Source: Thermoleophilia bacterium
GTDB taxonomy: Bacteria > Actinomycetota > Thermoleophilia > BMS3ABIN01
DNA length: 64,000 bases
Direction of reading: 5' to 3'
Assembly: GCA_014874175.1 (NCBI GenBank)
Contig: JACWAD010000094.1
Span: 3,158-67,157 of the forward strand
Shown here: one piece after another, positions 1 through 44,306 of the stretch
How the letters are laid out: each line of letters begins with the position of its first letter
Position numbering within the stretch: the stretch's first letter is position 1
Position numbers and translations under genes: made by a program
Notes under the pieces: model-generated
Seen by the model: only the letters and a program-made list of their open reading frames with translations
Told to the model about the DNA's origin: nothing
Database searches by the model: none

Positions 1-912
1 CATGCAGCGGTATCCTCCCTCTGGAATCAGATGGGCCGAATACTCGCGCGGGCTTGCCCCCTGGATCAGGCGCCGCAGCTGGGGCTGCTGCTTGAACTTG
101 TCCAGGATTGAATAAGCCTCTGTAACATTGTCAACGAGGCTGTCAAGGAGGACGCCGACGCCGATGGAGATAGTGTCCTGGTTGGTGTAGATAAAACCGG
201 TTCCCGGCAGGCCGCCGGTGATCTCGCCGATTATCTCGATGGCGGCGCCGGCGCCGGGCTCAAGGTCAAAGCGGTCCTCGATCTTTTCCTTGGGCAGCGC
301 CAGCACCTCCTTGACCGCCAGGGCAACATTGGGGGCCTGGGGCGGGCAGGAGGCCAGCCCGGCCTTCTCGGTCAGGAAGGGATTGACCCCTTCAGCGATG
401 ATAACCACGTCGGCTTCCAGGTCTCCCTGCGGCCGGCCGCTGCGAATGCCGACTACGCGGCCGTTCTCCTGGAGCAGATCCTCCACCAGCGTTTCCGTGA
501 CCATCCAGGCGCCGGCAGCCGCAGCCTGCGCCGCCAGCCACTTGTCAAAACGGGAGCGGTAGACGGTGAATGAGTTGAACGGCTCCTGGCCAAAGTCAGC
601 GGACTCGAAGGACGCCTTGATGGCCGAGTCGGTGGTGGCGAACCACATGTCACGGCGGGTGACCAGCCTTTCCAGGGGAGCCTCGCGCCAGAACCCGGGG
701 AAAACATTGGCTGTGGGATGTGAGTAAATGACTCCGCCCATCATGTTCTTGCTGCCGGACCAGGTGCCCCGCTCCAGGCAGGCAACGGTGGCGCCCGCGC
801 TGGCCAGGGTAAAGGTGGCCGCCAGGCCTGCCGGCCCGCCGCCGACAACGATGGCGTCGAAGCGTGAAGGGACCGTCCCGTTTGCGCCGGGTTTGTGTTG
901 ACCAGCGTTCAT
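1..912 (-). CDS. fixC: FAD-dependent oxidoreductase FixC/Etf-quinone oxidoreductase-like, 3' end truncated by window edge
   Basis: Manual minus-strand translation from the ATG at 912 gives [32 protein letters not shown]... (Rossmann FAD GxGxxG), FixC/geranylgeranyl-reductase-like. No stop before position 1. Start overlaps the etfA stop (ATGA). Confidence 0.7.
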   Translation of the reverse strand, partial: MNAGQHKPGANGTVPSRFDAIVVGGGPAGLAATFTLASAGATVACLERGTWSGSKNMMGGVIYSHPTANVFPGFWREAPLERLVTRRDMWFATTDSAIKASFESADFGQEPFNSFTVYRSRFDKWLAAQAAAAGAWMVTETLVEDLLQENGRVVGIRSGRPQGDLEADVVIIAEGVNPFLTEKAGLASCPPQAPNVALAVKEVLALPKEKIEDRFDLEPGAGAAIEIIGEITGGLPGTGFIYTNQDTISIGVGVLLDSLVDNVTEAYSILDKFKQQPQLRRLIQGASPREYSAHLIPEGGYRCM

Positions 913-2027
913 TTGCTCGTTCCTGTCTCTATCCTCAGGCCGCCGGCGGCCCCGGCCTGCGCCTTGCGGCGCCTGACTTCCTCCAGCAGGGCGGGCGCCA
1001 CTTCAAACAGGTCGCCGACAATGCCATAATCGGCGACCTCGAAGATAGGCGCCCCGGGGTCATTGTTAACGGCCACTACAATGTCAGAAGCCTGCATCCC
1101 GGCAAGGTGCTGGATGGCGCCGGAGATGCCCATGGCGAAGTAAAGCACCGGCCTCACCGTCTGGCCGGTCTGTCCCACCTGCCGCTGGGCCGAGATCCAG
1201 CCGGCGTCCACTGCCGCCCGCGAGGCGGCAACCGTGCCGCCCAGTTCCTGCGCCAGCTCTTCCAGGAGAGCAAAGTTGCGCGCAGCTTTCAGGCCCCGGC
1301 CGCCGGCGACAATCACCTTGGCTCCCTGCAGGGAAAGCTCGTCCTCCGGATCCGGAATGAATTCAAGCTGCTTGACTGAAGCGGCAGTTGCCTTCAGCCG
1401 CGCCCGGGAAGTGATGATTTCACCCGGCGCTTCCGGAAGGTGCCCGGGCTGCGGAAAAACTCCCGGCCTGACGGTCGCCATCTGCGGCTGGTGCCTCGGT
1501 GTAATAATGGTAGCCATCACGTTGCCGCCAAAGGCGGGACGGGTCTGGAGCAGCAGTTTTTTTTCCGGATCGATTTTAAGCTCGGTGCAATCGGCGGTCA
1601 GCCCGGTCTCCAGCTCGGTTGCGGCGGCGGAAGCGAGGTCGCGGCCGCGCGTTGTGGCGCCCAGCAGAATGATCCCGGGCTTGTGGCGGACGGCCAGCTC
1701 CACCAGCGCCTGGCAGTGCGGATCGGCCGAATATACCTCCAGTTTGGGTCCAGAAGCCAGGTAAGCGGCGGCGGCGCCTGAGGCGCACGCCCTGGCGGCC
1801 AGCTCACGCCCGCCGGCGCCGATGATGACGGCGGCGGCGCGCACGCCAAGCTCATCCGCCAGCAGCCGGGCCGCGCCGACAAGCTCCCAGGAGACGGACG
1901 CCGCCTCGGGGCCTTCGTGCTCGATGACAACCCAGACCTCGCCCCCATTAGCGGCGTTTACGGAGGCGTCTTCTGCCGCCAGGTTATTCCTGCCTCTTCG
2001 CGCCGCGTTTTTCTTTTCCTCAGCCAC
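909..2027 (-). CDS. etfA: electron transfer flavoprotein alpha subunit (EtfA/FixB)
   Basis: 372 aa ORF; EtfA FAD-binding C-terminal region; 8 nt overlap with etfB. Confidence 0.9.
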
Positions 2028-2877
2028 CGCGCCTGCCGATCTTCAGTCCGCGTTCCGACAACCTGTCAAACAGGTTTTCCACCACTTCAGTGACCGGTTT
2101 GCTGGGCGCTGAAAGGGTTTCCCCCCGTTTTCTGGCCGGCGGAGCAAAGATTCTGCTCACCCTGGTAGGGGAGCCCTTAAGCCCCAGGCGCCCTCTGTCC
2201 ACATCCAGGTCCGGCACGCTCCAGACCTCGACAGGTTTCTTTGCGGCAGCGATCAGGTCCGGCAGCGATGCGTAGCGGATGTGGCTGCACTGCTCGGTTA
2301 CCGTGACGGCAACCGGCAATTGAGCCCGGAGGAGCTCGCGCCCGTCTTCACGCCGGCGCCATGCTTCAACACACCCTGCCTTAACGTCAATTTCAATAAG
2401 AGAGCAGACATAGGTCAACTGGCTGAACCCCAGCCGCCGCGCCAGACCGGGGCCAACCTGGCCGGTGTCGCCGTCAATCGACTGCTTGCCGCAAAAGACG
2501 ATGTCAACGCCGCTGCCGCCCCCTGTTTGTGAAGGCCGCCCGGCTGCGATTTTTTTGACAGCCGCCGCCAGCGCGTATGTGGTGGCCAGCGTGTCGGCGC
2601 CGGCAAAAGCGCGGTCGGAGAGCAGAACGGCCCGGTCCACACCGTAGCCGAGAGCTTTTCTTAAGACTTCCTCAGCCTGCGGCGGACCCATTGAAAGCGC
2701 AGTGATAAATCCGCCGAACCGGTCCCTGATGCCGAGGGCCGTTTCCAGCGCGTACAGGTCGTAAGGATTGGCAACGGATGGAATCCCCTTGCGGACAAGG
2801 CTGCCCGTCTCCGGATCAATCCAGACCTGGCTTGTGTCGGGAACCTGCTTGATACAGACTACAGAATTAATTGACAA
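2020..2877 (-). CDS. etfB: electron transfer flavoprotein beta subunit (EtfB/FixA)
   Basis: 285 aa ORF MSINSVVCIKQVPDTSQVWIDPETGSL..., canonical EtfB N-terminus. Confidence 0.9.
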   Translation of the reverse strand: MSINSVVCIKQVPDTSQVWIDPETGSLVRKGIPSVANPYDLYALETALGIRDRFGGFITALSMGPPQAEEVLRKALGYGVDRAVLLSDRAFAGADTLATTYALAAAVKKIAAGRPSQTGGGSGVDIVFCGKQSIDGDTGQVGPGLARRLGFSQLTYVCSLIEIDVKAGCVEAWRRREDGRELLRAQLPVAVTVTEQCSHIRYASLPDLIAAAKKPVEVWSVPDLDVDRGRLGLKGSPTRVSRIFAPPARKRGETLSAPSKPVTEVVENLFDRLSERGLKIGRRGG

Positions 2878-3000
2878 CTACCGCTCCCTTATCATCGGTA
2901 AATTTGGCAAAATCGGCGGGACAGAAAAATTACGTTGAAGATGAAATTGCAGTGAGGCTTTCAGCATGCAACTCAATCGGCATGCCTGCAAAACCGGTTT

Positions 3001-3348
3001 TTATGCTGTGATGCCTTCAAGCGCTTCTTCCCTGGTCTGAAAGATATCGAAGACACTGTTTAGGCCTGTGATCTGGAAAATCCAGTTGACGTTTTCGTCC
3101 ACACTAACAAGAACGAGCCTGCCATCCTTGGGCTTGAGCCGCTTGACCCCTCCGATTAGCACCCCCAGGGCGGAGCTGTCAATGAAATGGACTCCCGACA
3201 TGTCAATAACGATCCTAAGCATTCCGTCTCCCAGGGCTTGCAGCAGAGCCTCTTTCAGCCGCGGAGCCGTGTAAAGGTCAAGCTCGCCGGCAACCTCGAT
3301 CACTGCAACCCCGCCGGCAGTTTGTTCAGTTGCGATATTGAATTCCAT
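3001..3348 (-). CDS. STAS-domain anti-sigma-factor antagonist (SpoIIAA/RsbV-like)
   Basis: 115 aa; ...GELDLYTAPRLKEAL...IDMSGVHFIDSSALGVL..., typical STAS fold motif. Confidence 0.8.
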   Translation of the reverse strand: MEFNIATEQTAGGVAVIEVAGELDLYTAPRLKEALLQALGDGMLRIVIDMSGVHFIDSSALGVLIGGVKRLKPKDGRLVLVSVDENVNWIFQITGLNSVFDIFQTREEALEGITA

Positions 3349-3568: not shown

Positions 3569-3769
3569 ATGCGTGTAAAGATCGAGCCCAGGGATGAATG
3601 TCTAGGCGACGCCATTTGTTCGGATGAATGCCCGGAGGTGTTTGTTATCAATGAAGAGGACGGCCTGGCGATGGTTATCAAGGAAAATCCTGATGAAAGC
3701 CTGCGCGAGGCGGTTCAGAATGCGGTTGATGAATGCCCGGCCGAGATCATCATCATCGAAGAGGATTAG
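3569..3769 (+). CDS. small ferredoxin (single-cluster type)
   Basis: 66 aa acidic protein with CLGDAICSDECP...ECP cysteine pattern. Strong SD GGAGAGAG upstream. Confidence 0.75.
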   Translation: MRVKIEPRDECLGDAICSDECPEVFVINEEDGLAMVIKENPDESLREAVQNAVDECPAEIIIIEED

Positions 3770-3834
3770 CAGCCGGCAAGCGGCTTTCTGACAACAATTA
3801 ACCGGCCCGCCGCTTTAAAAGAATGAGGAGCCCA

Positions 3835-4221
3835 ATGAAGGGAACGCGCAAGAGGCAAAGACTCTTGGCATTGATCGGACTGACGGCCGTCGCCGCACTT
3901 TTTCCCTTTGCCTGCGGCTACAGTAGCGGTGGGACCCCGGCGGGAGGAGCGGCAACAGTTAGCGGAAATACAGCCAGCGTGTCGATGAAGAATATCGCCT
4001 TCAACCCCGCCGATATCACGGTCAGCAAAGGCACAAAAGTAACATGGACCAACGATGACTCCGTCGCCCATACGGCCACAGCCGACAACGGCATGTTTGA
4101 TTCGGGCAACATGGATCCGGGGAAATCGTTCAGCTTCACGTTCAGCCAAACGGGTTCATTCCCTTACTATTGCAAATACCACGTTTCACAAAACATGAAA
4201 GGGACTGTGACGGTCAAGTAG
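3835..4221 (+). CDS. cupredoxin (plastocyanin/pseudoazurin-like blue copper protein), signal peptide/probable lipoprotein
   Basis: Signal peptide ending ...FPFACGY. Copper ligands H (VAHT), C-x2-H (YYCKYH), M (NMKG). GAGGAG SD 4 nt before the ATG at 3835; track ORF starts at 3823. Confidence 0.7.
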   Translation: MKGTRKRQRLLALIGLTAVAALFPFACGYSSGGTPAGGAATVSGNTASVSMKNIAFNPADITVSKGTKVTWTNDDSVAHTATADNGMFDSGNMDPGKSFSFTFSQTGSFPYYCKYHVSQNMKGTVTVK

Positions 4222-4339
4222 CGATGGCGTCAGCGGATGAGGTCCGGGTTGAGGTTGACTTTGAGCATTGAATTGGCCTAGTGCGGGGGCAGGGCAATCA
4301 GCGGGGCGGCGAAAGTCTTTTCATGCCGGAGAGTGATAA

Positions 4340-5557
4340 ATGGCGGAAACAGCAGCCCAGAAAAAAATAAAAATTTACACAACCCCTGGTTGACCTTTTT
4401 GCCGGCGCCTGAAGGCTCTATTCCGTGAGAGGGGAATGGATTTCAGCGAGAAGGACGTGGCCGCCGACCTGCTGGCGCTCGCCGAGATGCGCAGCCTCAC
4501 CGGCAAGAGCTTCGTTCCCCAGATATTTATCGGCGACGAGTACATCGGCGGCTATCAGGATTTTCTCATCCTTGACGCCAGGGGGGAGATCGACCGCAAG
4601 CTGGGGCGGCGCCCGCATCCTGTCCGCGAAGTCGCCGAAATCTTTGACATGATCATCATCGGCGGCGGCCCGGCAGGGCTGACGGCGGCAGTTTATGCGG
4701 CCAGAAAGGGCATGAAAACCTTGCTCCTTGCCGACCTGCTCGGAGGGCAGCCGATCCTGACCGCGGACGTTGAGAATTACATGGGGTTTCAGTTTGTCAC
4801 AGGCCCGGAGCTGATGGCTAAGTTTGAAGAACAGGTGAGGCAGTTTCCCAACGTTGTGCTTATCACCGGTCAGCCAGTGACCAGGCTCGAGCTGGAAGGG
4901 GGCCTGAAAAAGGCGACGACCGCATCGGAAAAGTCATTTCTGGGGCGGAGCGTCATAATTGCCTCCGGCAAGCAGCCGCGAATGCTTAATATCCCGGGCG
5001 AGCGCGAGTATGTGGGCAGGGGCGTAAGTTATTGCGCAACCTGCGATGCGCCGCTTTGCGCGGGCGAGAGCGTCATGGTTGCCGGTGGCGGGAATTCCGC
5101 CATGGAGGCTGCGCTAGAACTGTCTGCGATCTGTCCCCACGTGCATCTGGTTGTGCGCGACAGGCTCAGGGGGGATGAGGTGCTGATGGGCAAGGTGCTG
5201 GCCGAAGACCGCATCTGCAAGCACCTCTCCTGGCAGCCTGCCGAGATCAAGGGGGACGGCAAGGAAGTTAAATCAGTCGCGATCGCGTCTGCCGACGGGA
5301 AGGACAGAAAGGAAATTGACGTCCGGGCGTTTTTTGTTGAGGCTGGCCTGCATCCAAACGCTGATTTTGCCGTCGGGCTGGTGCAGCTTAATCCCTTGGG
5401 GGAGATCATTGTCGACTGCGATTGCCGCACGGGCGTCGACGGGGTTTTTGCGGCCGGCGACGTCACCCAGGTGCGCGACAAGCAGATTGTGGTGGCGGCA
5501 GGCGAAGGCGCCAAGGCGGCCCTTTCGGCGTACGAGTACTTGCTGGTGCAGAGGTAG
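4340..5557 (+). CDS. selenoprotein: glutaredoxin-like domain (active site U-P-F-C, Sec encoded by in-frame TGA at 4391-4393) fused to low-Mr thioredoxin-reductase-like flavoprotein (CATC active site)
   Basis: ATG at 4340 with GGAGAG SD 6 nt upstream. Translation MAETAAQKKIKIYTTPG-TGA-PFCRRLKALFRERGMDFSEKDV...VPQIFIGDEYIGGYQDF... is a complete Grx fold only if TGA=Sec. It continues in frame into the track ORF 4436..5557 with GGGPAG and SYCATCD motifs. Confidence 0.65.
4391..4393 (+). other. in-frame UGA at the glutaredoxin active-site Cys position (putative selenocysteine codon); candidate SECIS hairpin 4409-4446
   Basis: TGA replaces the first Cys of the CPxC motif (IYTTPG-U-PFC). Downstream CUGAAG(4409-4414)/UUUCAG(4441-4446) can close a stem-loop. 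Confidence 0.55.
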
Positions 5558-5774
5558 AGTTTATTGGTCAATGATAGTATTTGTGATACAAATAAAAAAT
5601 GAGCGCAACAACAACCCTGGCCCCAGGGGGAACCCCAATTTTAATTCTATCATGTGCTTTGCTGTTTTTAATCAAACTTTGGTATGATTTTCGTTTTTAA
5701 AAAGATGTAGTTTCTGTGATTACCGGGAGCTCATGCGGGAGTTCACACCAGCCCAGGGCAGATAGCCGCGCCAG

Positions 5775-7481
5775 ATGAAGTTGCGGCAATTTATCATGGC
5801 GGCCCGGGGGCAGGCGCCGGCGGATATGGTTCTTAAAGACGCCCGGCTGGTTGACGTTCTCTCCGGCGATGTCATCCGCACGAACGTCGCTGTTTTTGGC
5901 GGCCGTGTCGCCGGCCTGGGCGATTACAGCGGCAGGGAAGTCATTGATCTGGGCGGCCGCTATCTCTGCCCCGGCTTCATCGATTCCCACATTCATATTG
6001 AAAGCACGATGCTGACGCCGCCGGAGTTCGCCCGCGCCGTCATTCCCCTGGGCACGACTTCAGTGATTATTGACCCGCACGAGATTGCCAACGTCCTGGG
6101 CCAGGAGGGCATCAATTACATGCTCAAGTCCAGCCGGGATCTGCCGGTCTCCGTATACGTGATGCTGCCCTCATGCGTGCCGACCACCGGCATGGAGACG
6201 TCCGGCGCCAGGCTGGACAGTCGGGCCTTGGAGCCGCTACTTGGCAAAGAGCGCGTGCTCGGCATTGCCGAGATGATGAATTACCCCGGCGTGCTTGACT
6301 CCGACCCTGAAGTGCTGGCAAAGATCAAGCTGGCGGCGGGCCGCCCTGTCGACGGGCATGCCCCGGGCCTGAGTGGCAGGGACCTGGCAGCCTACATCGG
6401 CGCCGGCATTATCTCCGACCATGAGTGCGTCGCGGCCGCCGAGGCCATGGAAAAACTGCGTCTGGGCATGCACATCCTTGTCCGCGAGGGGTCCACCGCC
6501 AAGAATCTGGCAGATCTCATCACTATTGTCAAGAAAGAAAACGCCGCACATTTCAGTCTGGCCACGGACGACCGCCACCCGGTGGACCTGATCTGTGAAG
6601 GGCACATCAACTACCTGGTGCGCCTGGCGATCAGCGGGGGCGTGCCGCCCGTAACCGCCATCCGGATGGCGACAATCAACACGGCTTCCCATTATGGGCT
6701 GGCAGGCCTGGGCGCCATCGCTCCCGGCTACATGGCCGACATGCTGGTCCTTGACGATCTTGAGCAGGTGAGTGTCGCCAGCGTGTTCAAGCAGGGGCGC
6801 CTGGTGGCCAGAGATGGGGCGGCGCTTCCATTCAAGGCTGGAAATCCCGCAGGCGTCGTTCATGGCACGGTTAATATTGATGTGTCAAGCCTCGACCGTC
6901 TCGCTATCCCGGCGGCCGGCGGGCGGCTGAAAGTGATAGGCATCATTCCCGATCAGGTCATTACAGAAAAACTTGTTGTCAATGCCAGAATCGAAAACGG
7001 CCTGGCGGTCTCCGATCCGGACCGGGACATCCTCAAGCTGGCCGTGATCGAGCGCCACCACGCCAGCGGCAACATCGGCCTTGGCTTCGTGCGCGGCGTC
7101 GGCCTCAAGCGGGGGGCGCTGGCCAGCTCGGTGGCTCATGACTCCCACAACATTATTGCCGTCGGGGTTAGTGATGGCGACATGCGCCTGGCGGTGCTGG
7201 AGCTTGCCCGGATGAGAGGCGGCGCCGTCGCCGTCGCCGCCGGCGAGGTGCTGGCCTCGTTGCCTCTGCCGGTCGCCGGCCTCATGTCGGACCGGCCCCT
7301 GGCCGAAGTTGCAGGGGCATCCCGGCGGGTGACCCAGGCCGCAGCCGGCCTCGGCTGCCAGCTTCCGGATCCGTTCATAACGATGTCTTTCCTCGCTCTG
7401 CCGGTGGTGCCAAAGTTGAAGCTTACCGACAAAGGGCTTGTGGATGTAAACGCATTTAAACTGGTGGGCCTGTTTGAATGA
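5775..7481 (+). CDS. ade: adenine deaminase
   Basis: 568 aa; amidohydrolase motifs GFIDSHIHIES, VDGHAPG; length and motifs match Ade. Confidence 0.85.
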   Translation: MKLRQFIMAARGQAPADMVLKDARLVDVLSGDVIRTNVAVFGGRVAGLGDYSGREVIDLGGRYLCPGFIDSHIHIESTMLTPPEFARAVIPLGTTSVIIDPHEIANVLGQEGINYMLKSSRDLPVSVYVMLPSCVPTTGMETSGARLDSRALEPLLGKERVLGIAEMMNYPGVLDSDPEVLAKIKLAAGRPVDGHAPGLSGRDLAAYIGAGIISDHECVAAAEAMEKLRLGMHILVREGSTAKNLADLITIVKKENAAHFSLATDDRHPVDLICEGHINYLVRLAISGGVPPVTAIRMATINTASHYGLAGLGAIAPGYMADMLVLDDLEQVSVASVFKQGRLVARDGAALPFKAGNPAGVVHGTVNIDVSSLDRLAIPAAGGRLKVIGIIPDQVITEKLVVNARIENGLAVSDPDRDILKLAVIERHHASGNIGLGFVRGVGLKRGALASSVAHDSHNIIAVGVSDGDMRLAVLELARMRGGAVAVAAGEVLASLPLPVAGLMSDRPLAEVAGASRRVTQAAAGLGCQLPDPFITMSFLALPVVPKLKLTDKGLVDVNAFKLVGLFE

Positions 7482-7698: not shown

Positions 7699-8940
7699 TT
7701 ACATGGCCGGCAGTTCTTCCTCCGCTTTGTAAGCGTATGATTGGGGCACCGGCTCGCCCAGCTGCCGGTCCAGCTCCGGCTCTTCCTTTCTGGCGGGGTA
7801 ATACCACAAGAAGCCGTCGATCATCATCAGCATCCCCGCACTGGCAAGCAGCATGCCCCACAATCCCGGCGCCCTAAGTTCGTATACCTTGGTCAGCCCA
7901 ACGCCGATGCTGGCAAAGACTATTCCCGTGCGGATGAATCCCAGCCCTGTCCTGGCGCGGGCGTAAACCGTGCGGTAACATGCGGCTATCGTCCTGTGCG
8001 CCGCCAGGATGTTGCGCTCCCGCGCCAGGTATGTCCGCATCCGGCTTTCCGGCGCCGGCTTCAGAATGGTGCTGTAGCTTGGCAGAAGGTCTTCCAGCCG
8101 GGCAAGCATTGTTTCCCTGGTTTTGGGACGGGGCGCATCTTCCAGGTGGTAACGCTCAAGGAAGGAGACTGTCGCCGCGGTCACCTCCGCCAGTGTTTGC
8201 GGACCTGCCATCCTAAGCATTGAATGGCGAAGCTTTCCATATTGCCAGGTGCCGAAGCCGGCAATCGCCAACCCCGCAGCAGCCAGCAGCCAGATCAACG
8301 CCTGCGAAAAGACAAACTTCCAGTCAAGAATGATAAACGCCGCCGCCAGCGTCACCGTACCCAGGCCCCACCGCGCCAGCGCCTGCCAGGTCCGCATGCG
8401 CGCCATTTCCGTGCGGTAACAGGCCAGCCGCGTCCGCCACGCCGCCATCGTGTTGCGCCAGAAGGCGAGCCCGGTGCGCTCAGTGCCGATAATGCGGCCG
8501 GGGCGGTCATTCAGGTAGTCCTGGACATACCAAAGAATTTCCATCACCAGGCTGACCCTGGGCGAATAGGGTCCCTGCACAAAGCGGTCGATCTCTTCGC
8601 GAACCACGGGCGAGCCCGGATCATTCAGGGCGGCAATGACCTTGCCGTTTTCAAGGATCAATGGGAACATGGGCTCACGCTTCAGCCTCTCCGGCTCCAG
8701 GCCTTCCAGCAGCTCGGGCGGCACGGGCAGACGCTCGTCAAACTCGATGGCGGGGAAGCCGAACTCCTCCGAGAGGGCGCCAAGCAGCTCTTTTTTTGGC
8801 ACTCCGTATTCTTCCATCAAAACCGCCTCGATTTCTGCGTTCCTTTCGGCGGCGGAAGCGTATGCGGCCTTAAGCTGCTTTTTGCTGATCACGCCGGTTT
8901 CCGCCAGCCGGCGGTATGTGACAAGTTGCCTAGAAATCAT
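7699..8940 (-). CDS. membrane protein: GspE/MshE N-terminal-like (T2SSE_N) domain + two reiterated DUF202(YidH)-type ERT/RT-x-LA repeat membrane modules
   Basis: Track ORF 7699..9030; likely start is the M at 8940 (MISRQLVTY...). N-terminus ...ISKKQLKAAYASAAERNAEIEAVLMEEYGVPKKELLGALSEEFGFPAIEFDE... Repeats ERTGLAFWRNTMAAWRTRLACYRTEMARMRT... and ERNILAAHRTIAACYRTVYARARTGLGFIRTG followed by TM helices. Confidence 0.6.
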   Translation of the reverse strand: MISRQLVTYRRLAETGVISKKQLKAAYASAAERNAEIEAVLMEEYGVPKKELLGALSEEFGFPAIEFDERLPVPPELLEGLEPERLKREPMFPLILENGKVIAALNDPGSPVVREEIDRFVQGPYSPRVSLVMEILWYVQDYLNDRPGRIIGTERTGLAFWRNTMAAWRTRLACYRTEMARMRTWQALARWGLGTVTLAAAFIILDWKFVFSQALIWLLAAAGLAIAGFGTWQYGKLRHSMLRMAGPQTLAEVTAATVSFLERYHLEDAPRPKTRETMLARLEDLLPSYSTILKPAPESRMRTYLARERNILAAHRTIAACYRTVYARARTGLGFIRTGIVFASIGVGLTKVYELRAPGLWGMLLASAGMLMMIDGFLWYYPARKEEPELDRQLGEPVPQSYAYKAEEELPAM

Positions 8941-10552
8941 CTTCAAACACCACCCTGCCCCAGAGGCGGGCCGGCTTGCCGTAATCCGGCAGGCTGATCT
9001 CCAGCCCGCCGCGGCAATAGGGATACTCACGCCTGAGCCTTTCCGATGTCAGGCACCAGCGCAGCCCGTCCCCGGCCAGGATCATCCCGGCGATTACCAG
9101 CAGCAGCGGCAGCAGTTTCCAGGAAACGCCGTTGGGCAGGGTCAGTACCACCAGGGTGGCGCCGACGCCGGCGATGCTCATGCCGGTGCGGATGAAGGAC
9201 AGCCCCGTGCGCGAGTGCGCCATCACGGTGCGCACCAGCGCCATCAGATTGCGGCGCTCGGCCAGAACTGTCCGCTCCAGCGCCAGCCCGGTTGTGCCCC
9301 AAATGCCCGGTGAGTGGCCGGCGCCAACCGGCGGCGCTTTATGCCGTGACCGGTGCAGGGCGGGAAAAGCCTCGTCCCAGATCGTATCTTCCTTAAGAGC
9401 GTCAAAAAAGCTTCTCAGACCGCTTCTGCCGGCCAGGTATCCGGAGCGGTACCAGTAGAAACCTTCAAACACCATCAGGACGCCTGCGGCCATGAGAAAA
9501 TAATCCAGATACCTTAAGTCTCCCCCGGGGAACCTGGTGAACAGGCCCAGCCCCAGGCCTCCGAAGGCGACACCGCTTCTGGCGAAGGCAAGGCCGGTGC
9601 GCGCCTGCGCCATCGTGGTGCGCATGGAGGCAAAGATGGTCCGCCCCTCCGCCAGGTCAGTGCGGTCATTTGCAAGGAAACGGCGCCGCATCACCGGGGA
9701 GAGCCGCCCCCAGGCCCGCCGCAGCCGGCCGGCTCCTGATACCCTTTTAGTGCGGCTGAACTCAATATCAGAATCCTCATTATGAGTCAACAAGACTGTC
9801 ATTTCTGGAGCCTTTGCTGTTTCCTGGTAGCCTGTTTTTTTTACCGCCTCGCTCCGGGCGGGGATGTACCATTTAAGACCATCAATAATTGAATAGGCTC
9901 CGGTTGCGATCAGGGCCAGATCAAGCGGCAGGAAGAGTCCAGCGCCAAACAGCTTGATGAATGCCACGCCGATTGTGATAAGCGAGATGCCGGTGCGCAG
10001 GAACGCCAGCGCCGTCCTCGCCTTGGCCATCGAGGTCCGCTGGACGGCCAGCGAAGAGCGCACGCCTGCCAGATAGGTTCTGGTCCTGGCCAGCGGCGTC
10101 CTGCCGGCCTCGGGGGGGAAGCCGGGGTTCAGGTCCTGGTTGTTCTCGATGATGCGGACGATGTCATTTGGCAGGGCAACGCGGAAGTCAACCTGACTGA
10201 CCCCTAGCGTGCTTTTGATATCCTTGACTACTTGTGGAGCGTGGGGCTGGCTGGCGATGACCTCGGCCCGGCCGCCCTGGATGGAGATCGGCATCCACAG
10301 CTTCTGCTTCAGCTCTTCAGCGTCGACGCGGCGCATAATTTTCCATGACACCATCAGGTCTTCATCGTACTCAATGTAAGGGCAGCCGTAGTGCTCGGAG
10401 AGGCTGACCAGGGCCTCGCACTTGGGCACGCCCCTTTCCAGCAGGATCTGCTCCAGCGGCCTGCCGGATTCTTCAGACAGCTTCAGCGCCGCCTCCAGGC
10501 CGTTCTTGTCAATGGAGCCGTTTTTTTGCAGCCTCTTATACACTGGCCTCAT
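8930..10552 (-). CDS. paralogous membrane protein: T2SSE_N/MshEN-like domain + three DUF202-type repeat modules
   Basis: Track ORF 8930..10612; probable start is the M at 10552 (MRPVYKRLQKNGSIDKNGLEAALKLSEESGRPLEQILLERGVPK...). Three repeats of RT-x-LA-x2-RT...RTG followed by TM helices. Confidence 0.6.
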   Translation of the reverse strand: MRPVYKRLQKNGSIDKNGLEAALKLSEESGRPLEQILLERGVPKCEALVSLSEHYGCPYIEYDEDLMVSWKIMRRVDAEELKQKLWMPISIQGGRAEVIASQPHAPQVVKDIKSTLGVSQVDFRVALPNDIVRIIENNQDLNPGFPPEAGRTPLARTRTYLAGVRSSLAVQRTSMAKARTALAFLRTGISLITIGVAFIKLFGAGLFLPLDLALIATGAYSIIDGLKWYIPARSEAVKKTGYQETAKAPEMTVLLTHNEDSDIEFSRTKRVSGAGRLRRAWGRLSPVMRRRFLANDRTDLAEGRTIFASMRTTMAQARTGLAFARSGVAFGGLGLGLFTRFPGGDLRYLDYFLMAAGVLMVFEGFYWYRSGYLAGRSGLRSFFDALKEDTIWDEAFPALHRSRHKAPPVGAGHSPGIWGTTGLALERTVLAERRNLMALVRTVMAHSRTGLSFIRTGMSIAGVGATLVVLTLPNGVSWKLLPLLLVIAGMILAGDGLRWCLTSERLRREYPYCRGGLEISLPDYGKPARLWGRVVFEDDF

Positions 10553-11054
10553 CCGCCGGCAGCGCGGGAGAAACAGGATATGCAGGGGCGCCGCCGCGCG
10601 CCATGGTGACAACGGGGTGGGGCGAGTGCTTCAGCATGCGTTTGCGGATAGTGCGGCTTTCCGTAACCATGGGGCTGAGCAGAACCATGTCTACTTTCAT
10701 TTTTCGCAGAAAACACATGATCGTGGACGCGGTCGCCTCCAGCTCGGCATGCACGGTAGCTGCGATGCCGTGGTGATTGCATTTTTCGATCAGCAGGCTT
10801 TCTACCGGCACAGAAGCCTGGCGGCTGTTTTTTTCATGCAGGGCCGCCGCGGCCTCGGCATAGGCATCCGGGAAAGGGGAGACCGAAGCAATGGAGGTCA
10901 ACGCCTTCTCAAACCGGCTGCCGGAGCCGTGGCTGCTGAGCAGCAAGATCCGGAGAGGCTTGCTGAGCAGTTTGGCGAGATATATGGCGTAAGAAATGCC
11001 ATGCTCGTAGTGCTCATCCTTATAGGCTACGTATAGAAGTTCCTGTCCTGACAT
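10536..11054 (-). CDS. hypothetical protein, USP-like alpha/beta fold
   Basis: ATG at 11054 has a perfect SD GGAGGAG 1 nt upstream. Product MSGQELLYVAYKDEHYEHGISYAIYLAKLLSKPLRILLLSS... The track ORF extends to 11210, probably spuriously. Confidence 0.5.
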   Translation of the reverse strand: MSGQELLYVAYKDEHYEHGISYAIYLAKLLSKPLRILLLSSHGSGSRFEKALTSIASVSPFPDAYAEAAAALHEKNSRQASVPVESLLIEKCNHHGIAATVHAELEATASTIMCFLRKMKVDMVLLSPMVTESRTIRKRMLKHSPHPVVTMARGGAPAYPVSPALPADEASV

Positions 11055-11266: not shown

Positions 11267-12604
11267 CTATTTTTCTTCCTTTAGCATGCGCCAGAGGCTG
11301 GTGCGGGAAACGCCCAGCACACGGGAGGCTTCGGACTTGTTGCCGCCAAACATCTCCAGCACGGAATGCACGTATTCCCTGTTAATTTCAGCCAGGGATT
11401 TTACCTTGTCCGGTTCCAGCGAGGTTTCTATTTGAAACATAAGCAGCGATTGTGGCAGGGATTCGGCGGTTATAAATGTACCCTTTTCCAGAATGACGGC
11501 GCGCTCGATGATGTTTTCCAGCTCGCGCACATTGCCCGGATAGCTGTACCGCTTGAGCACATCGAGCGCCTCCCTGTCAAACCTGCTTATTTTCTTGCCG
11601 TATTCGCGCACGTGCTTGCGCAGAAAGAATTTGCTTAAGGGCGCAATATCTCCCCTGCGCTCGCGCAGCGGCGGCACGTATATTTCCATGACATTAAGGC
11701 GGTAGTAGAGATCCTTCCGGAACGAGCCCCTGGCTACCGCCTCACTGATGTTCTGATTTGTGGCCGCAATGAACCTGGCGTCCGCCCGGACCGGCTTTAT
11801 GCCGCCAACCGGATAGAACTCCCTCTCCTCGATGGCCTTCAGCAGCTTGGCCTGCAGGTTGGGCGACATTTCGGTTATCTCGTCAAAAAAGAGAGTGCCC
11901 TTGCCGGCGATTTTCATCAAGCCCTGTTTGCGCGAATCCGCCCCCGTAAAGGCCCCTTTTTCGTGGCCGAACAGCTCGCTGGCCAGCAGCTCTTCGGAGA
12001 AAGTGGCGCAGTTCAGGGACAGGAAGGGCTTGTCGCGGCGCGCGCTGGAGTAGTGGATAACCTTGGCGAGCAGGTTCTTGCCCACCCCGCTTTCGCCGGT
12101 AAGAAGAACGTTGCAGTCCGACCCCTGGATGCTGTTGACCATCTCCAGCACCTTTTTCATGCCCCTGCTCTCGGCAATGACATTGATATTTTTACCGAGG
12201 TCAAGGGATGTGCGCAAGGCAACGTTCTCCTGGGCGAGCTCTTTCTGCTTAAGGATGTTTTGCACCTTCAGAAGCAGCTCGTCGAGATCGAAAGGCTTAG
12301 GCAGGTAATCAAAAGCGCCTTTCTTCATTGCCTCCACGGCCGAGTTGATGCTGCCGAAACCGGTAATGACGAGCACTTCTGTCTCGGGTGAAATTTTCTT
12401 CACCCGCGTCAGCAGCTCGAGGCCATCCATTTTAGGCATCTTGATGTCGGCAATGAGCACATCGAAGTCTTTTGACTTTATTTCATTGAGGGCGTCAACG
12501 CCGTTTCCGGTGCTCTCCACCTCGTAACTTTCATCACGGAGAATGTCAGCCAGATGTTTCCTGGTGATGTCCTCATCCTCTGCTATCAGAATCCTGAAAG
12601 TCAT
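11267..12604 (-). CDS. sigma-54-dependent response regulator (NtrC/AtoC family: REC + AAA+ + Fis HTH)
   Basis: 445 aa; REC domain; GESGVGK Walker A; GAFTGA sigma-54 contact motif; C-terminal HTH. Confidence 0.9.
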   Translation of the reverse strand: MTFRILIAEDEDITRKHLADILRDESYEVESTGNGVDALNEIKSKDFDVLIADIKMPKMDGLELLTRVKKISPETEVLVITGFGSINSAVEAMKKGAFDYLPKPFDLDELLLKVQNILKQKELAQENVALRTSLDLGKNINVIAESRGMKKVLEMVNSIQGSDCNVLLTGESGVGKNLLAKVIHYSSARRDKPFLSLNCATFSEELLASELFGHEKGAFTGADSRKQGLMKIAGKGTLFFDEITEMSPNLQAKLLKAIEEREFYPVGGIKPVRADARFIAATNQNISEAVARGSFRKDLYYRLNVMEIYVPPLRERRGDIAPLSKFFLRKHVREYGKKISRFDREALDVLKRYSYPGNVRELENIIERAVILEKGTFITAESLPQSLLMFQIETSLEPDKVKSLAEINREYVHSVLEMFGGNKSEASRVLGVSRTSLWRMLKEEK

Positions 12605-21972: not shown

Positions 21973-22551
21973 CTACGCCGCCCTTTGTGAGTTTTGAAGG
22001 CGCTTCCAATATGAGCTGAAAAGGTCCACCATCATGCTGTTAAAGACCGGCAGATCCAGGGGGTTGCGGCTGCTTACCCAGTTGCGGTCAACGACGCCGT
22101 CCCTGTCCAGCCAGCGGCCGCCGGCGTTGCGGATATCATCCTTGAGGGTGTAGTAGCTGGTCATCGTCCTGCCGCTGACGAGGCCGGCGGAGACCAGCAG
22201 CCAGGCGCCGTGGCAAATAACGGCAACAGGTTTTTCCTGCTCATCCATCCGGGTGACAAACACCCGCGCTTGCGGCTCCATCCTCAGCTTGTCGGCGTTG
22301 ATTACCCCGCCCGGCAGTATCATCGCATCGAAGTCGGCAGGGTCGGCTTCAGCCAGTGTCATGTCAACGTCGAAGGCGTTTGCCCTCCTGCCATGCTGAA
22401 ACCCTTGCACCTGCCCGGAATGAGGTGCAATCAGGAAAGTGACGGCGCCCTCGTTTCTGAGTGCTTCCCGGGGTTCGGTCATCTCGACCTGCTCGAAATC
22501 ATACGTCGCCAGAATGGCGATTTTCATTCCCTCCAGTTTATGCTCAGGCAT
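21973..22551 (-). CDS. DJ-1/PfpI family protein (class I glutamine amidotransferase-like)
   Basis: 192 aa; AICHGAW nucleophile-elbow motif; alternative start at 22527 (MKIAIL...). Confidence 0.85.
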   Translation of the reverse strand: MPEHKLEGMKIAILATYDFEQVEMTEPREALRNEGAVTFLIAPHSGQVQGFQHGRRANAFDVDMTLAEADPADFDAMILPGGVINADKLRMEPQARVFVTRMDEQEKPVAVICHGAWLLVSAGLVSGRTMTSYYTLKDDIRNAGGRWLDRDGVVDRNWVSSRNPLDLPVFNSMMVDLFSSYWKRLQNSQRAA

Positions 22552-22767
22552 CTTATCCTCCCTCTTTATATGCCATGCCCAACGGCGGCGATTTCAAACT
22601 CTTGTTGCTTATGGGACGGCTGCTGCCCCGTTCTTTTTATGCCAGGCAACCGGTTGACCTATGATCTGGGCGGCGAGGCTGGAAAAGGAAGTTCCCGGAT
22701 GAAGGCAAACGGGAAAAGAAACGAACAACCGGGCTTTTTTGTCTTAATAAGCCGGGCTGGGAAAAAC

Positions 22768-23940
22768 ATGCGCATACTGTCAATTAACAGCGGCTCATCA
22801 AGCCTGAAATACGCCCTTCACGATATGGAAAGAAGCGGCCGCGGGGCTGCCGTCGAGTCAGGCGGTTTGATGCGCATCGGCATGGCCGCCAGCCGTTTTT
22901 TGTGCCGCAACCATGGCGCCCAGTCATCATGGCAGCTGGCGCTGCCTGACCATGCCGCGGCTATGGAGGCACTGGTCCGGCACCTGCGCCGGGGTGACTT
23001 GATGTCAACAGTGGATTGCATTGGCCACCGCATCGTGCACGGCGGCTTGCTTTACCGGCAGCCGGAAATTGTCTCTCCTGGAATGATTGACAACCTGCGG
23101 GGGCTGGTCCGGCTGGCGCCCGAGCACTTGCCCGATGAGATTACGGCGGTTGAGTTTTTCGGCCGAGAGTTTCCTCACTTGACCCAGGTTGCCTGCTTTG
23201 ACACGTCTTTCCATTCGAACCTTCCCCGGCTGGCGCGCATTTTTCCTCTGCCGGCAGGGCTGGAGGACGGTGGTCTTGTCCGCTACGGATTTCACGGGCT
23301 TTCCTACGAATACATCATGTCTCGCCTGAAAGAGCTGGAGGAGGCACAGGGCCGCATTGTCATTGCCCATCTCGGCAACGGGGCCAGCATGGCGGCGGTA
23401 AGGGACGGCCGCAGCGTTGACACAACGATGGGGTTTACGCCCGCCGGCGGCCTGATGATGAGCACCCGCTCCGGCGACCTTGACCCCGGGGTTATTTTTT
23501 TCCTGCTCAGGGAAAAGAACCTCGACGCAGAAAGCGTGGCCAGGCTGATAAATGAACAATCCGGGCTTGCCGGAGTTTCCGGAAGATCGGGCGATATGGA
23601 AGAGCTGCTCAGCCAGGAGAAGGAAAGCGCCGCGGCTGTTGACGCGGTCAACCTGTTTTGCTACCTGGCGCGAAAATTCCTGGGCGCGCTGGCGTTTGCA
23701 CTGGGCGGGCTTGATACTGTCGTTTTTACCGGCGGCATAGGCGAAAAATCGCCAGCGGTGCGGGCCCGCATCTGCGCCGGGCTTGAGTTTGCCGGCCTGA
23801 AACTTGAAGAGGAGCGAAACCGTGATAACGCTGGCTTAATCTCGGCCGCCGGGTCAGCCGTCAGCGTCCGGGTGATGAAGGCTGGTGAGGAGCTGATGAT
23901 CGCTCGCCACGCCGCCCGGCTGATGCGTGAGAAGGAGTGA
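22768..23940 (+). CDS. ackA: acetate kinase
   Basis: MRILSINSGSSSLKY..., HRIVHGG, FDTSFH motifs. Track ORF starts upstream at 22210; the ATG at 22768 matches the AckA N-terminus. Confidence 0.9.
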   Translation: MRILSINSGSSSLKYALHDMERSGRGAAVESGGLMRIGMAASRFLCRNHGAQSSWQLALPDHAAAMEALVRHLRRGDLMSTVDCIGHRIVHGGLLYRQPEIVSPGMIDNLRGLVRLAPEHLPDEITAVEFFGREFPHLTQVACFDTSFHSNLPRLARIFPLPAGLEDGGLVRYGFHGLSYEYIMSRLKELEEAQGRIVIAHLGNGASMAAVRDGRSVDTTMGFTPAGGLMMSTRSGDLDPGVIFFLLREKNLDAESVARLINEQSGLAGVSGRSGDMEELLSQEKESAAAVDAVNLFCYLARKFLGALAFALGGLDTVVFTGGIGEKSPAVRARICAGLEFAGLKLEEERNRDNAGLISAAGSAVSVRVMKAGEELMIARHAARLMREKE

Positions 23941-23947
23941 ACGACCT

Positions 23948-41235: not shown

Positions 41236-41729
41236 GGGCGCCGCTCCCGCCGGGCCAGCAAAACGGCGCCGACAATTGCCGCCAGCAGCACCAGCGACGC
41301 CAGCTCGAATGGAAATGCGTACTGGTTAAAAAGCAGGCGGGACAGATTGGCGGTGGCCGGATTCTTGGGACTGCTGCCGGCGTTGAACCTGGCGCTGCCA
41401 AGCACCAGGCCCAGCACAACGGCAAGAGCCGCCGCTGCGGGAAGCGCTGCCCAGGACTGGCGGTGGAAAAAGATGCCGACGGCGCCGCTGCGCCGGCGGG
41501 TGAGCATGATGGCAAACAGGATCAGGATTGATATGGCGCCCACATATATAAGAAGCTGCGACGCGGCCAGCAGCTCCGCATTCAGGGTAACAAACACGGC
41601 CGCCACCCCAGAGAAGCAGGCAATCATGGCCATAGCGCTGTAAATCAGGTTCTTAAGCGACACCATCAGCACGGCCGGAATGATGACCAGCGCCGCCACG
41701 ATGTAGAAAACTGGCGTGGAGAATTGCAT
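41232..41729 (-). CDS. nuoJ: NADH-quinone oxidoreductase subunit J
   Basis: 165 aa; 4 nt overlap with nuoK. Confidence 0.85.
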   Translation of the reverse strand: MQFSTPVFYIVAALVIIPAVLMVSLKNLIYSAMAMIACFSGVAAVFVTLNAELLAASQLLIYVGAISILILFAIMLTRRRSGAVGIFFHRQSWAALPAAAALAVVLGLVLGSARFNAGSSPKNPATANLSRLLFNQYAFPFELASLVLLAAIVGAVLLARRERRP

Positions 41730-44257: not shown

Positions 44258-44306
44258 GTTTCAAGTTTCAAGTTCCCGGTTGGGCCGCAAGGTTGTGCGC
44301 CCCAAC

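Follow-up and report, generated by a model that had tools for sequence, protein, structure and literature searches.

AhpF, an NADH:peroxiredoxin oxidoreductase (E. coli 4o5q, S. typhimurium 1hyu), has an N-terminal thioredoxin (Trx)-fold domain with a CxxC-type center, tethered to a thioredoxin reductase (TrxR)-like module that carries a CxxC of its own. A similar arrangement is predicted for the product of the gene studied here, which lies at positions 4340-5557 of a 64,000-nucleotide stretch of DNA from a Thermoleophilia bacterium (contig JACWAD010000094.1, assembly GCA_014874175.1). This whole stretch is termed the window. From the comparison of related sequences, the gene very probably encodes one protein, a selenocysteine (Sec) glutaredoxin (Grx) fused to the flavoenzyme that recharges it. 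AhpF is the best match to this protein in both sequence and fold. It differs in that the window protein has one Trx fold where AhpF has two (~405 compared with ~520 residues), and in that the N-terminal domain of the window protein is of Grx3 type, with Sec as the predicted outlet nucleophile. The NADH-specificity residues of AhpF are not conserved, and no AhpC gene stands beside the window gene.

A second point of comparison is the relay of C. pasteurianum formed by Cp34 (an NADH-dependent TrxR-like protein), Cp9 (Grx-like, with C-P-[YW]-C) and Cp20 (a peroxiredoxin) (Reynolds, Meyer and Poole, 2002, as described in PMC3720550). There too a flavoprotein is dedicated to a small Grx-like redoxin, and the two-gene relatives of the window gene, in which a Sec-Grx gene is paired with a TrxR-like gene, follow the same logic. 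In contrast to that system, the proteins are fused in the window, the redoxin would use Sec and is nearer to Grx3 than to the YruB/Cp9 type, and there is no peroxiredoxin gene nearby.

Stand-alone selenoprotein Grx (PF00462, UxxC) has long been known, in Geobacter and Alkaliphilus/Clostridium sp. OhILAs (Kim et al., 2011). It shares with the window protein the domain family, the position of Sec in U-x-x-C, and a selenocysteine insertion sequence (SECIS, a candidate in our case) within the open reading frame (ORF) directly downstream, but is a single domain of ~80-100 residues and not the N-terminus of a 405-residue flavoenzyme. A Sec-containing 'AhpF N-terminal domain homolog' is likewise long known. 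This too is a Sec-containing Trx-fold protein, related to the part of AhpF that passes electrons on to substrates; however, it belongs to the double-fold family of the AhpF N-terminal domain and PDO, is unfused to a flavoprotein, and is not among the top NCBIfam matches of the window protein.

Eukaryotic thioredoxin-glutathione reductase (TGR) is also a selenoprotein with an N-terminal Grx fused to a TrxR-type flavoenzyme, and the Grx domain gives a weak match to TGR 5w1j (26 bits). Yet TGR is a high-Mr TrxR with Sec in a C-terminal GCUG tail and an all-Cys Grx, whereas the window enzyme is of the low-Mr/AhpF type with Sec predicted in the Grx site. The resemblance is convergent, not homologous. 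In the passages of the family tables of two reviews (2022 and 2026) that term searches returned, no Sec-type Grx-flavoprotein fusion appears, and we found no literature description of a Sec-type or Cys-type Grx-TrxR/AhpF-like fusion, although absence there is not proof of absence.

A Reading Frame Containing a Single UGA Codon

The frame read directly from the sequence extends over 4340-5557 (+), and its translation gives 405 codons including UGA at codon 18. The features at its 5′ end are as follows.

4328-4333 (+): Shine-Dalgarno-like GGAGAG, 6 nt 5′ of ATG 4340, read from the sequence
4391-4393 (+): in-frame TGA, the predicted selenocysteine codon (U18), aligned with Cys1 of CxxC in Cys-type homologues
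4391-4402 (+): Grx-domain redox active site U-P-F-C (U18...C21, as predicted); homologues have C-P-[FYWH]-C

The spacer between GGAGAG and the ATG is TGATAA, comprising two in-frame stops, and ATG 4340 is therefore the first possible start. From there the frame reads MAETAAQKKIKIYTTPG, then TGA, then PFCRRLKALF... (PFCRRLKALFRERGMDFSEKD...), with no further in-frame stop until TAG at 5555-5557; the protein ends ...EYLLVQR. The ORF listed by the program (4436-5557) opens at M33, inside the Grx fold. Thus the start at ATG 4340 behind GGAGAG, the single in-frame TGA and the listed ORF beginning within the Grx domain, as described in the original prediction, are all found in the sequence.

TGA is the normal stop of other genes in the window, such as that of adenine deaminase (7479-7481), and in 10 further members of the clade, each assembled independently, the codon at this site is likewise TGA. 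The recoding would therefore be site-specific, and not the consequence of an alternative genetic code. A search of the window for other selenoprotein genes gave no further in-frame TGA in a redox-motif context.

A scan for promoters and terminators gave a 'terminator-like' hairpin, CAACC-CCU-GGUUG followed by ACCUUUUUGC, at 4380-4392 and overlapping the UGA. It is weak (5 bp) and its stem positions differ in the L081 equivalent, and is most likely due to chance.

The UGA Codon Is Conserved among Relatives and Flanked by Coding Sequence

The read-through protein was used as the query in a search for homologues, which fall into two groups: a close clade with 57-88% identity and a distant clade with 43-48% identity. 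The window's clade is composed of metagenome-assembled genomes (MAGs) labelled Thermoleophilia/Actinomycetota, several members being Thermoleophilia MAGs by their NCBI names. Their DNA was obtained by exact-protein look-ups; a metagenome scan gave only more distant relatives among the matches listed.

In the close clade, 54 of the 59 database clusters are called as starting just past the active site, inside the Grx domain, with N-termini such as 'MSLKDLLRARG...', 'MRLKALLRERG...' and 'MKERTGKSYVPQ...'. Shortening of this kind is a typical gene-caller artifact at a Sec codon. The only full-length cluster of this clade that bears CxxC is P0011, with C-H-Y-C. The proteins of the distant clade are mostly full-length (~395 aa), with C-P-[FYW]-C.

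At the level of DNA, TGA occupies the Cys1 codon in 11 of the 12 sampled clade members (the window, L081, L001, L009 and L162-L168). Among these, L081 is syntenic and encodes a protein 88% identical to that of the window, and L166 has the active site U-Q-H-C. The sole sampled orthologue in the clade with TGT at this position is L169, the locus of P0011. The TGA aligns with this Cys codon, and with Cys1 of C-P-x-C in the Cys-type fusions. From TGA to the stop, the ORF is intact in nine clade members, with lengths of 384-387 codons.

The sequence 5′ of the TGA is informative. Over the nine codons that precede it, the pairwise differences between the 12 sequences at codon positions 1, 2 and 3 number 199, 160 and 369, respectively, and in the clade alignment I-Y-[ST]-x-P-[GT] is kept by means of synonymous changes. 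The start codon differs at each locus of the clade, lying 12-62 codons 5′ of the TGA. By this pattern of substitution, the segment 5′ of the TGA is under protein-coding (purifying) selection, from which it follows that translation must continue through the TGA. On its other side, residues 22-90 are conserved throughout the clade.

A second, independent lineage of Sec-type Grx-flavoprotein fusion is found at L170 (657-1812), which reads 'MYSQIQ-U-PWCHRAKALL' and shares 46% identity with the protein of the window. Its UGA is followed, after ~22 nt, by a stable hairpin, and it has a Cys-type sibling, P0063. Five more truncated entries (P0088, P0094, P0106, P0112 and P0118) may belong with this lineage.

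A Candidate SECIS Hairpin Downstream of the UGA Codon

The sequence downstream of the UGA can be folded into a stem-loop.

4409-4446 (+): candidate bacterial SECIS, with outer stem 4409-4414/4441-4446, a 2-nt bulge (4415-4416), inner stem 4417-4424/4433-4440 and apical loop GUGAGAGG (4425-4432)

The local minimum free energy (MFE) fold of 4405-4450 is a two-tier hairpin of −17.7 kcal/mol (z = −2.2), and 6 of 200 shuffled sequences were equally stable. The apical loop begins with G-U at 4425, 31 nt past the UGA, and is carried on the 8-bp inner and 6-bp outer stems; this agrees with the pattern of a bacterial SECIS, in which a G, most often as GU, is expected in the loop at ~16-37 nt from the UGA. 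An alternative register applies across the clade, with stem 4417-4423/4429-4435 and loop CGUGA (4424-4428). The hairpin originally proposed, CUGAAG (4409-4414) paired with UUUCAG (4441-4446), is correct in its coordinates and is the outer stem of the MFE fold, but the conserved element is the inner stem-loop 4417-4440 instead.

We compared Grx active sites of the Sec type (35) and the Cys type (64), each fused or adjacent to a TrxR-like gene. The mean folding energy of the 48 nt 3′ of the codon was −11.4 kcal/mol for the Sec-type and −6.6 kcal/mol for the Cys-type sites (Mann-Whitney p = 4e-8). A shift was also seen when the Sec-type sites were set against synonymous recodings of their own peptides (p = 4e-6 in comparison with the Cys-type sites). 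The sites were then scored for a hairpin with 5 bp or more in its stem and a loop that begins 13-37 nt past the codon (the range scanned) and has GU within its first three positions. By these SECIS-like rules, which are our own implementation of bSECISearch-like rules and not bSECISearch itself, 27 of 35 Sec-type sites scored positive compared with 5 of 64 Cys-type sites. The loops vary: [A]GUU lies ~22-23 nt downstream in the separate Sec-Grx genes, and [C]GUGA or GUGAGAGG lies ~30-31 nt downstream in the window's clade.

Within the clade the stem (columns 27-33/39-45 of alignment A4) has 94% of its cells paired, compared with 63-79% in slid controls. Three of its seven pairs are altered on both sides, i.e., by compensatory changes, and its covariation score lies above those of all 500 shuffles. 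The Cys orthologue L169 retains just 3 of the 7 pairs. It has CGG for both Arg codons, where the ten Sec-type members compared have CGU for the first (10 of 10) and AGG for the second (7). A search of Rfam gave no relevant match, either at the gathering threshold or at E ≤ 10; to our knowledge Rfam holds no generic bacterial SECIS model.

The proposal that Sec occupies the first position of the Grx CPxC site is thus upheld by the alternation of TGA and Cys codons among orthologues, by purifying selection 5′ of the TGA, and by a conserved, co-varying SECIS-like hairpin. The insertion of Sec itself is something that we infer from these comparisons.

Domain Structure of the Fusion Protein

Profile searches of the window protein were run with U replaced by C. 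The domains and motifs are given below.

4367-4546 (+): glutaredoxin domain of the Grx3/GrxC type (PF00462, residues 10-69, E = 2e-17, 63.5 bits against a cut-off of 22.9)
4601-4639 (+): flexible linker between Grx and flavoprotein, ~residues 88-100; low predicted local distance difference test (pLDDT) scores at residues 88-93 in the P0011 model, and poorly conserved columns in alignments A1 and A2
4643-5509 (+): AhpF/low-Mr-TrxR-like FAD/pyridine-nucleotide disulfide oxidoreductase module, residues 102-390 (Pyr_redox_2, PF07992, E = 1e-42)
4655-4678 (+): FAD-binding GxGxxG (IGGGPAGL, residues 106-113); G108, G110, P111 and A112 invariant in A1 and A2, G113 invariant in A2
5033-5044 (+): redox-active disulfide C232-A-T-C235; C232, T234 and C235 invariant in 52 homologues, and aligned with the C345/C348 region of AhpF
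5084-5107 (+): pyrophosphate-binding GGGNSAME, residues 249-256; G249 and G251 invariant, G250, N252 and S253 nearly invariant
5141-5176 (+): position of the 2′-phosphate motif, with VHLVVRDRLRGD in place of VxxxHRRDxxRA; the clade consensus is VHLVSLTxLTGD

PF00462 and Pyr_redox_2 are matched in a single frame that also contains CATC, in agreement with the prediction of one polypeptide with a TrxR-type flavoprotein. The N-terminal half has the score, the CPxC-type site (U-P-F-C) and the cis-Pro motif of a glutaredoxin, the last being VPQ at residues 59-61 (V59-P60); there is also GG at 70-71. Its best solved relatives are the Grx3 structures 4tr0 and 1fov (66-68 bits), with the NrdH/Cp9-like BC3987 at 27 bits. 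Against TIGR02181 (GRX_bact) it scores 70.0 bits, below the cut-off of 90, placing it as Grx3-like but outside the equivalog.

The flavoprotein half scores 246 bits with AhpF 4o5q, 213 with L. lactis TrxR 5mh4, 148 with DTR 5j60 and 101 with 6gna, a ferredoxin-dependent flavin thioredoxin reductase (FFTR). No NCBIfam model reached its cut-off, YruB (TIGR02196) scoring 55 bits against 88.6. The C-terminal module is of the AhpF type, with CATC, GGGPAG, GGGNSAME and the GD motif all conserved, but the protein as a whole falls outside the AhpF family: TIGR03140 gave 313.7 bits against 502.9 and was covered only over 171-514, and there is a single Trx fold of ~85 residues. Nor does it belong with the NADPH-type TrxRs (TIGR01292, 281.4 bits against 343; 2′-phosphate motif absent), with FFTR or DTR (AhpF being closer, and GGGxxAxE retained), or with TIGR01438, thioredoxin-glutathione reductase (42.5 bits against 475.9; no GCUG tail).

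In the alignment with AhpF (4o5q), residues 59-402 of the window protein correspond to 171-516. The AlphaFold (AF2) model of the Cys orthologue P0011 has a pLDDT of 88.7, with linker residues 88-93 disordered; when submitted to Foldseek, its top matches were full-length AhpF, over ~410 aligned columns. The spacing from active site to cis-Pro also matches, from 18 to 60 in the window protein and 129 to 172 in the second Trx fold of AhpF. Taken together, the alignment, the Foldseek result and the spacing indicate an architecture that is collinear with AhpF once the first Trx fold of the latter is left out.

The motifs by which pyridine nucleotides are recognized have been defined as GGGxxAxE for the pyrophosphate and VxxxHRRDxxRA for the 2′-phosphate (PMC5627308). 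Canonical NADPH specificity is unsupported here because the HRRDxxR element of the latter is absent. The flavoprotein is TrxR-like, as originally described, but resembles AhpF more closely than canonical NADPH-TrxR, and NADPH cannot be taken for granted as the donor.

Gene Neighborhood and Related Architectures

Two genes lie immediately upstream of the selenoprotein gene on the same strand.

3569-3769 (+): single-cluster ferredoxin of 66 aa (Fer4_13/Fer4_15), directly upstream in all 9 other clade loci with called genes (64-66 aa)
3823-4221 (+): plastocyanin-like cupredoxin with a signal-peptide-like hydrophobic N-terminus (PF00127/PF13473; TIGR02656 below its cut-off)

The ferredoxin gene may be co-transcribed with the selenoprotein gene, making its product a candidate alternative electron donor. 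The cupredoxin gene lies between the two; it is present in 6 of the 9 other clade loci, and absent from L163, L164 and L168. Divergently oriented upstream are electron transfer flavoprotein (ETF)/Fix genes on the minus strand (1-3348 of the window), found also in 8 of the 9 other loci (not L165); a FixX-like ferredoxin subunit was seen in six of the ETF/Fix loci of the clade. A gene for a STAS anti-sigma-factor antagonist (−) is present in all of the loci (the window, L081 and L162-L169). The gene order of the clade is thus ETF/Fix (−), STAS (−), ferredoxin (+), optional cupredoxin (+), Sec-Grx-flavoprotein (+), an optional MOFRL-family gene and adenine deaminase (+). An enzyme of purine salvage, adenine deaminase, is kept here beside a redox gene.

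Fusion of a Sec-Grx to a TrxR in a single polypeptide was originally considered unusual. The architecture itself proves not to be rare, since all-Cys Grx-flavoprotein fusions of ~395 aa are widespread, being found in Thermodesulfobacteriota, Gammaproteobacteria, Actinobacteria and MAGs of Methanomicrobiales. The Sec-type fusion is found in at least two lineages, the window's clade and L170.

In other organisms the two parts are encoded separately. The loci of Chloroflexota MAGs (L015, L034, L042, L053, L060, L071, L078, L148, L150 and others) have a separate Sec-Grx gene of 80 aa (TPT-U-P[WYF]C) directly upstream of a TrxR-like gene, and some delta-proteobacterial loci have a Sec-Grx gene of ~80 aa in the same position. 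The TGA-Grx loci of both groups had been candidates for fusions, but full translations show separate ~80-aa genes that stop just upstream of the TrxR-like gene. The annotated neighbors in Chloroflexota (L015, L034 and L078) are a Fur-family regulator, one or more rubrerythrins and an Fe/Mn-superoxide dismutase, and there are NifS/NifU-like ORFs near the Chloroflexota pairs, identified by sequence resemblance only. In the delta-proteobacterial L003, a gene for a peroxiredoxin of the Redoxin/AhpC-TSA family lies ~1 kb downstream. Loci of the Desulfobacterales type (L005 10033-11476, L011 10045-11479, L006 and L082) have a separate gene for Sec-Grx and, immediately after it, one for a fusion of Cys-Grx (GCPFC) to the flavoprotein. 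This places two Trx-fold modules in series before the flavoprotein, an arrangement reminiscent of the double N-terminal fold of AhpF.

Several features elsewhere in the window were noted. In a cluster of complex-I (Nuo) genes, the 842-aa protein encoded at 41729-44257 (−) contains 2Fe-2S, a Fer4_20/GltD-like Pyr_redox_2 module and 4Fe-4S domains, with no molybdopterin-type domain among its 15 matched Pfam families; this is the position at which NuoG would be expected from the nuo gene order. The NuoF-like protein at 44307-46121 (−) is unusually long at 604 aa. The proteins of 41729-46121 may form a non-canonical electron-input module. Genes for a sigma-54-dependent response regulator and MshEN/DUF202 proteins stand beside a histidine kinase gene, at 11267-12604 (−) and 8930-10612 (−), an arrangement kept in L081 and L163. 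Sigma-54 systems are unusual for Actinomycetota, and in view of these genes it may be worth re-examining the assignment of the related MAGs to 'Thermoleophilia'. At 22210-26341 (+) a gene for acetate kinase lies next to one for phosphoketolase (XFP); the listed acetate kinase ORF is extended at its N-terminus by ~188 aa, probably owing to a wrong start.

Proposed Mechanism and Alternatives

We consider it very likely that 4340-5557 is a genuine selenoprotein gene, in which SelB and the hairpin direct Sec to UGA 4391-4393 to give a 405-residue protein of Sec-Grx and AhpF/TrxR-like flavoprotein with the electron path described below. The ribosome would start at ATG 4340, and the stem-loop located 15-55 nt past the UGA (4409-4446) would recruit SelB with Sec-tRNA so that selenocysteine is inserted. 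The predicted product consists of a Grx3-type domain (U18-P-F-C21), a flexible linker of ~13 residues and the flavoprotein. In the first step of catalysis FAD would be reduced by a pyridine nucleotide, either NADH or NADPH, NADH being the likelier. FAD would then reduce the C232/C235 disulfide. Following the domain rotation typical of this class of enzyme, the resulting dithiol would reduce the U18-C21 selenenylsulfide of the tethered Grx domain. Lastly, the exposed selenolate would attack the substrate, for which a peroxiredoxin, a protein disulfide and a mixed disulfide involving a low-molecular-weight thiol are candidates. This path is drawn by analogy with AhpF and low-Mr TrxR, from which we infer the donor, the direction of flow and the substrate.

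On this analogy the protein can be described as a 'mini-AhpF', in which a single Trx fold stands for two and the outlet residue is Sec, and may equally be regarded as a fused, selenium-containing counterpart of the split Cp34/Cp9 system. The comparative evidence also supports the earlier suggestion of a self-contained, selenium-dependent disulfide reductase.

A number of observations weigh against this interpretation. Considered by itself, the hairpin of the window stands out only moderately (z = −1.5 to −2.2), with 6.7% of synonymous recodings reaching its stability. The pairing can be drawn in two registers, and in that of the clade the window has one mismatch. Synonymous changes over the hairpin codons are not significantly suppressed (0.63 vs 0.53, p = 0.14), and all of the p-values from these comparisons are optimistic because the sequences are related and not independent. 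In L167 (GCA_021790075.1) the TGA is kept, but there is a 1-nt frameshift shortly after 'RLKALL' (~5545-5630), in the SECIS region; this may be an assembly error or a decaying copy. Neither the 64-kb window nor the flanking sequence of 37 Sec-type loci yielded selA, selB, selD or tRNA-Sec; among ~30 window ORFs annotated with Pfam and NCBIfam there was no selA, selB, selD or selU, and the sole tRNA in the window is tRNA-Phe. As none was found in either place, the Sec machinery of the source genome can only be presumed. With respect to the donor, HRRDxxR is absent, the clade does not retain the Glu that follows strand β2 in AhpF, and the ferredoxin gene immediately upstream is conserved.

These last points lead to an alternative in which the selenoprotein is the same, but its flavoprotein is reduced in the manner of FFTR, by the upstream ferredoxin instead of NAD(P)H, the ferredoxin possibly being charged by the divergent bifurcating ETF of FixABCX type. 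The position of the 64-66-aa Fer4_13/15 gene, directly upstream on the same strand in 9 of 9 other clade loci, is consistent with this, as are the divergent ETF/Fix genes in the window and 8 of those 9 and a consensus VHLVSLTxLTGD that lacks the acidic residue of AhpF as well as HRRDxxR. Yet the flavoprotein is far nearer to the NADH-dependent AhpF (246 bits) and to NADPH-TrxRs than to FFTR 6gna (101) or DTR 5j60 (148). Moreover, the pyrophosphate motif GGGNSAxE is conserved here, whereas it is degenerate in the NAD(P)H-independent TRi (PMC5627308). The linkage was seen in the window's clade only, and an exported-looking cupredoxin often intervenes, so that the synteny need not be functional. 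We regard ferredoxin as an unlikely donor.

If instead the TGA were a true stop, the locus would produce a 17-residue leader peptide and a separate flavoprotein from ATG 4436 or later, with the N-terminus of the Grx as a decaying remnant. Gene callers annotate the locus in this way in almost all databases, a purine-rich stretch precedes ATG 4436, no Sec machinery was seen in the window, and the frameshift of L167 falls in the same region. But a Grx domain deprived of strand β1 and its nucleophile would be useless, and residues 22-90 are nevertheless conserved in the clade. Substitutions 5′ of the TGA are of the coding type, with I-Y-[ST]-x-P-[GT] retained, and TGA falls precisely on the codon for Cys1 in 11 assemblies, as it does once more in a second lineage. 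In addition the downstream hairpin is specific to TGA-type genes, and the positions of the downstream 'start' codons vary between relatives. A true stop is thus very improbable.

It is just as hard to accept that the UGA is read through without selenium, e.g., as Cys or Trp by near-cognate or other recoding to give a full-length non-selenoprotein, for while it is evident from Cys-type orthologues, L169 among them, that the enzyme can function with Cys, and no Sec machinery was found in the window or the flanks of the 37 Sec-type loci, UGA is a normal stop for other window genes, a GU-loop hairpin (by the SECIS-like rules given above) accompanies UGA and is absent from Cys-type genes, U-x-x-C in a Trx fold is the commonest bacterial selenoprotein class, and stand-alone Sec-Grx is established.

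Implications

In one sense a Sec-Grx flavoenzyme is no conceptual surprise, given how common U-x-x-C is in Trx-fold selenoproteins of bacteria. It combines two well-known parts in a layout missed by gene callers and by curated selenoprotein lists. Records P0002-P0059, e.g., the NCBI entry 'MAG: FAD-dependent oxidoreductase [Thermoleophilia bacterium]', have been deposited without residues 1 to ~22, including U-x-x-C. The catalytic N-terminus is missing from them because the TGA is taken as a stop in gene calling. This affects at least 54 clusters of the clade in the databases, and a dedicated selenoprotein model would correct the records.

A broader and tentative view, which we hold to be possible but on balance doubtful, is that this is an unrecognized single-chain 'seleno-mini-AhpF' architecture, which has arisen at least twice and which dozens of MAG annotations systematically misrecord as an N-terminally truncated 'FAD-dependent oxidoreductase'. 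The AhpF-like flavoprotein would then be the dedicated reductase that has long been missing for the bacterial Sec-glutaredoxins of anaerobes. In its most adventurous version, the enzyme of this clade may draw low-potential electrons not from NAD(P)H but from the conserved upstream ferredoxin, which FixABCX would charge. If true, selenol-based reduction of disulfides or peroxides would be coupled in this way to flavin-based electron bifurcation.

The occurrence of Sec and Cys forms within one synteny (the window and L169), together with two independent lineages of Sec fusion, offers a clean natural system for gauging what Sec contributes to a thiol-disulfide relay. Fusion in the window's clade and L170, and gene adjacency in the Chloroflexota and delta-proteobacterial loci, constitute Rosetta-stone evidence for what reduces Sec-Grx in organisms that possibly lack glutathione.

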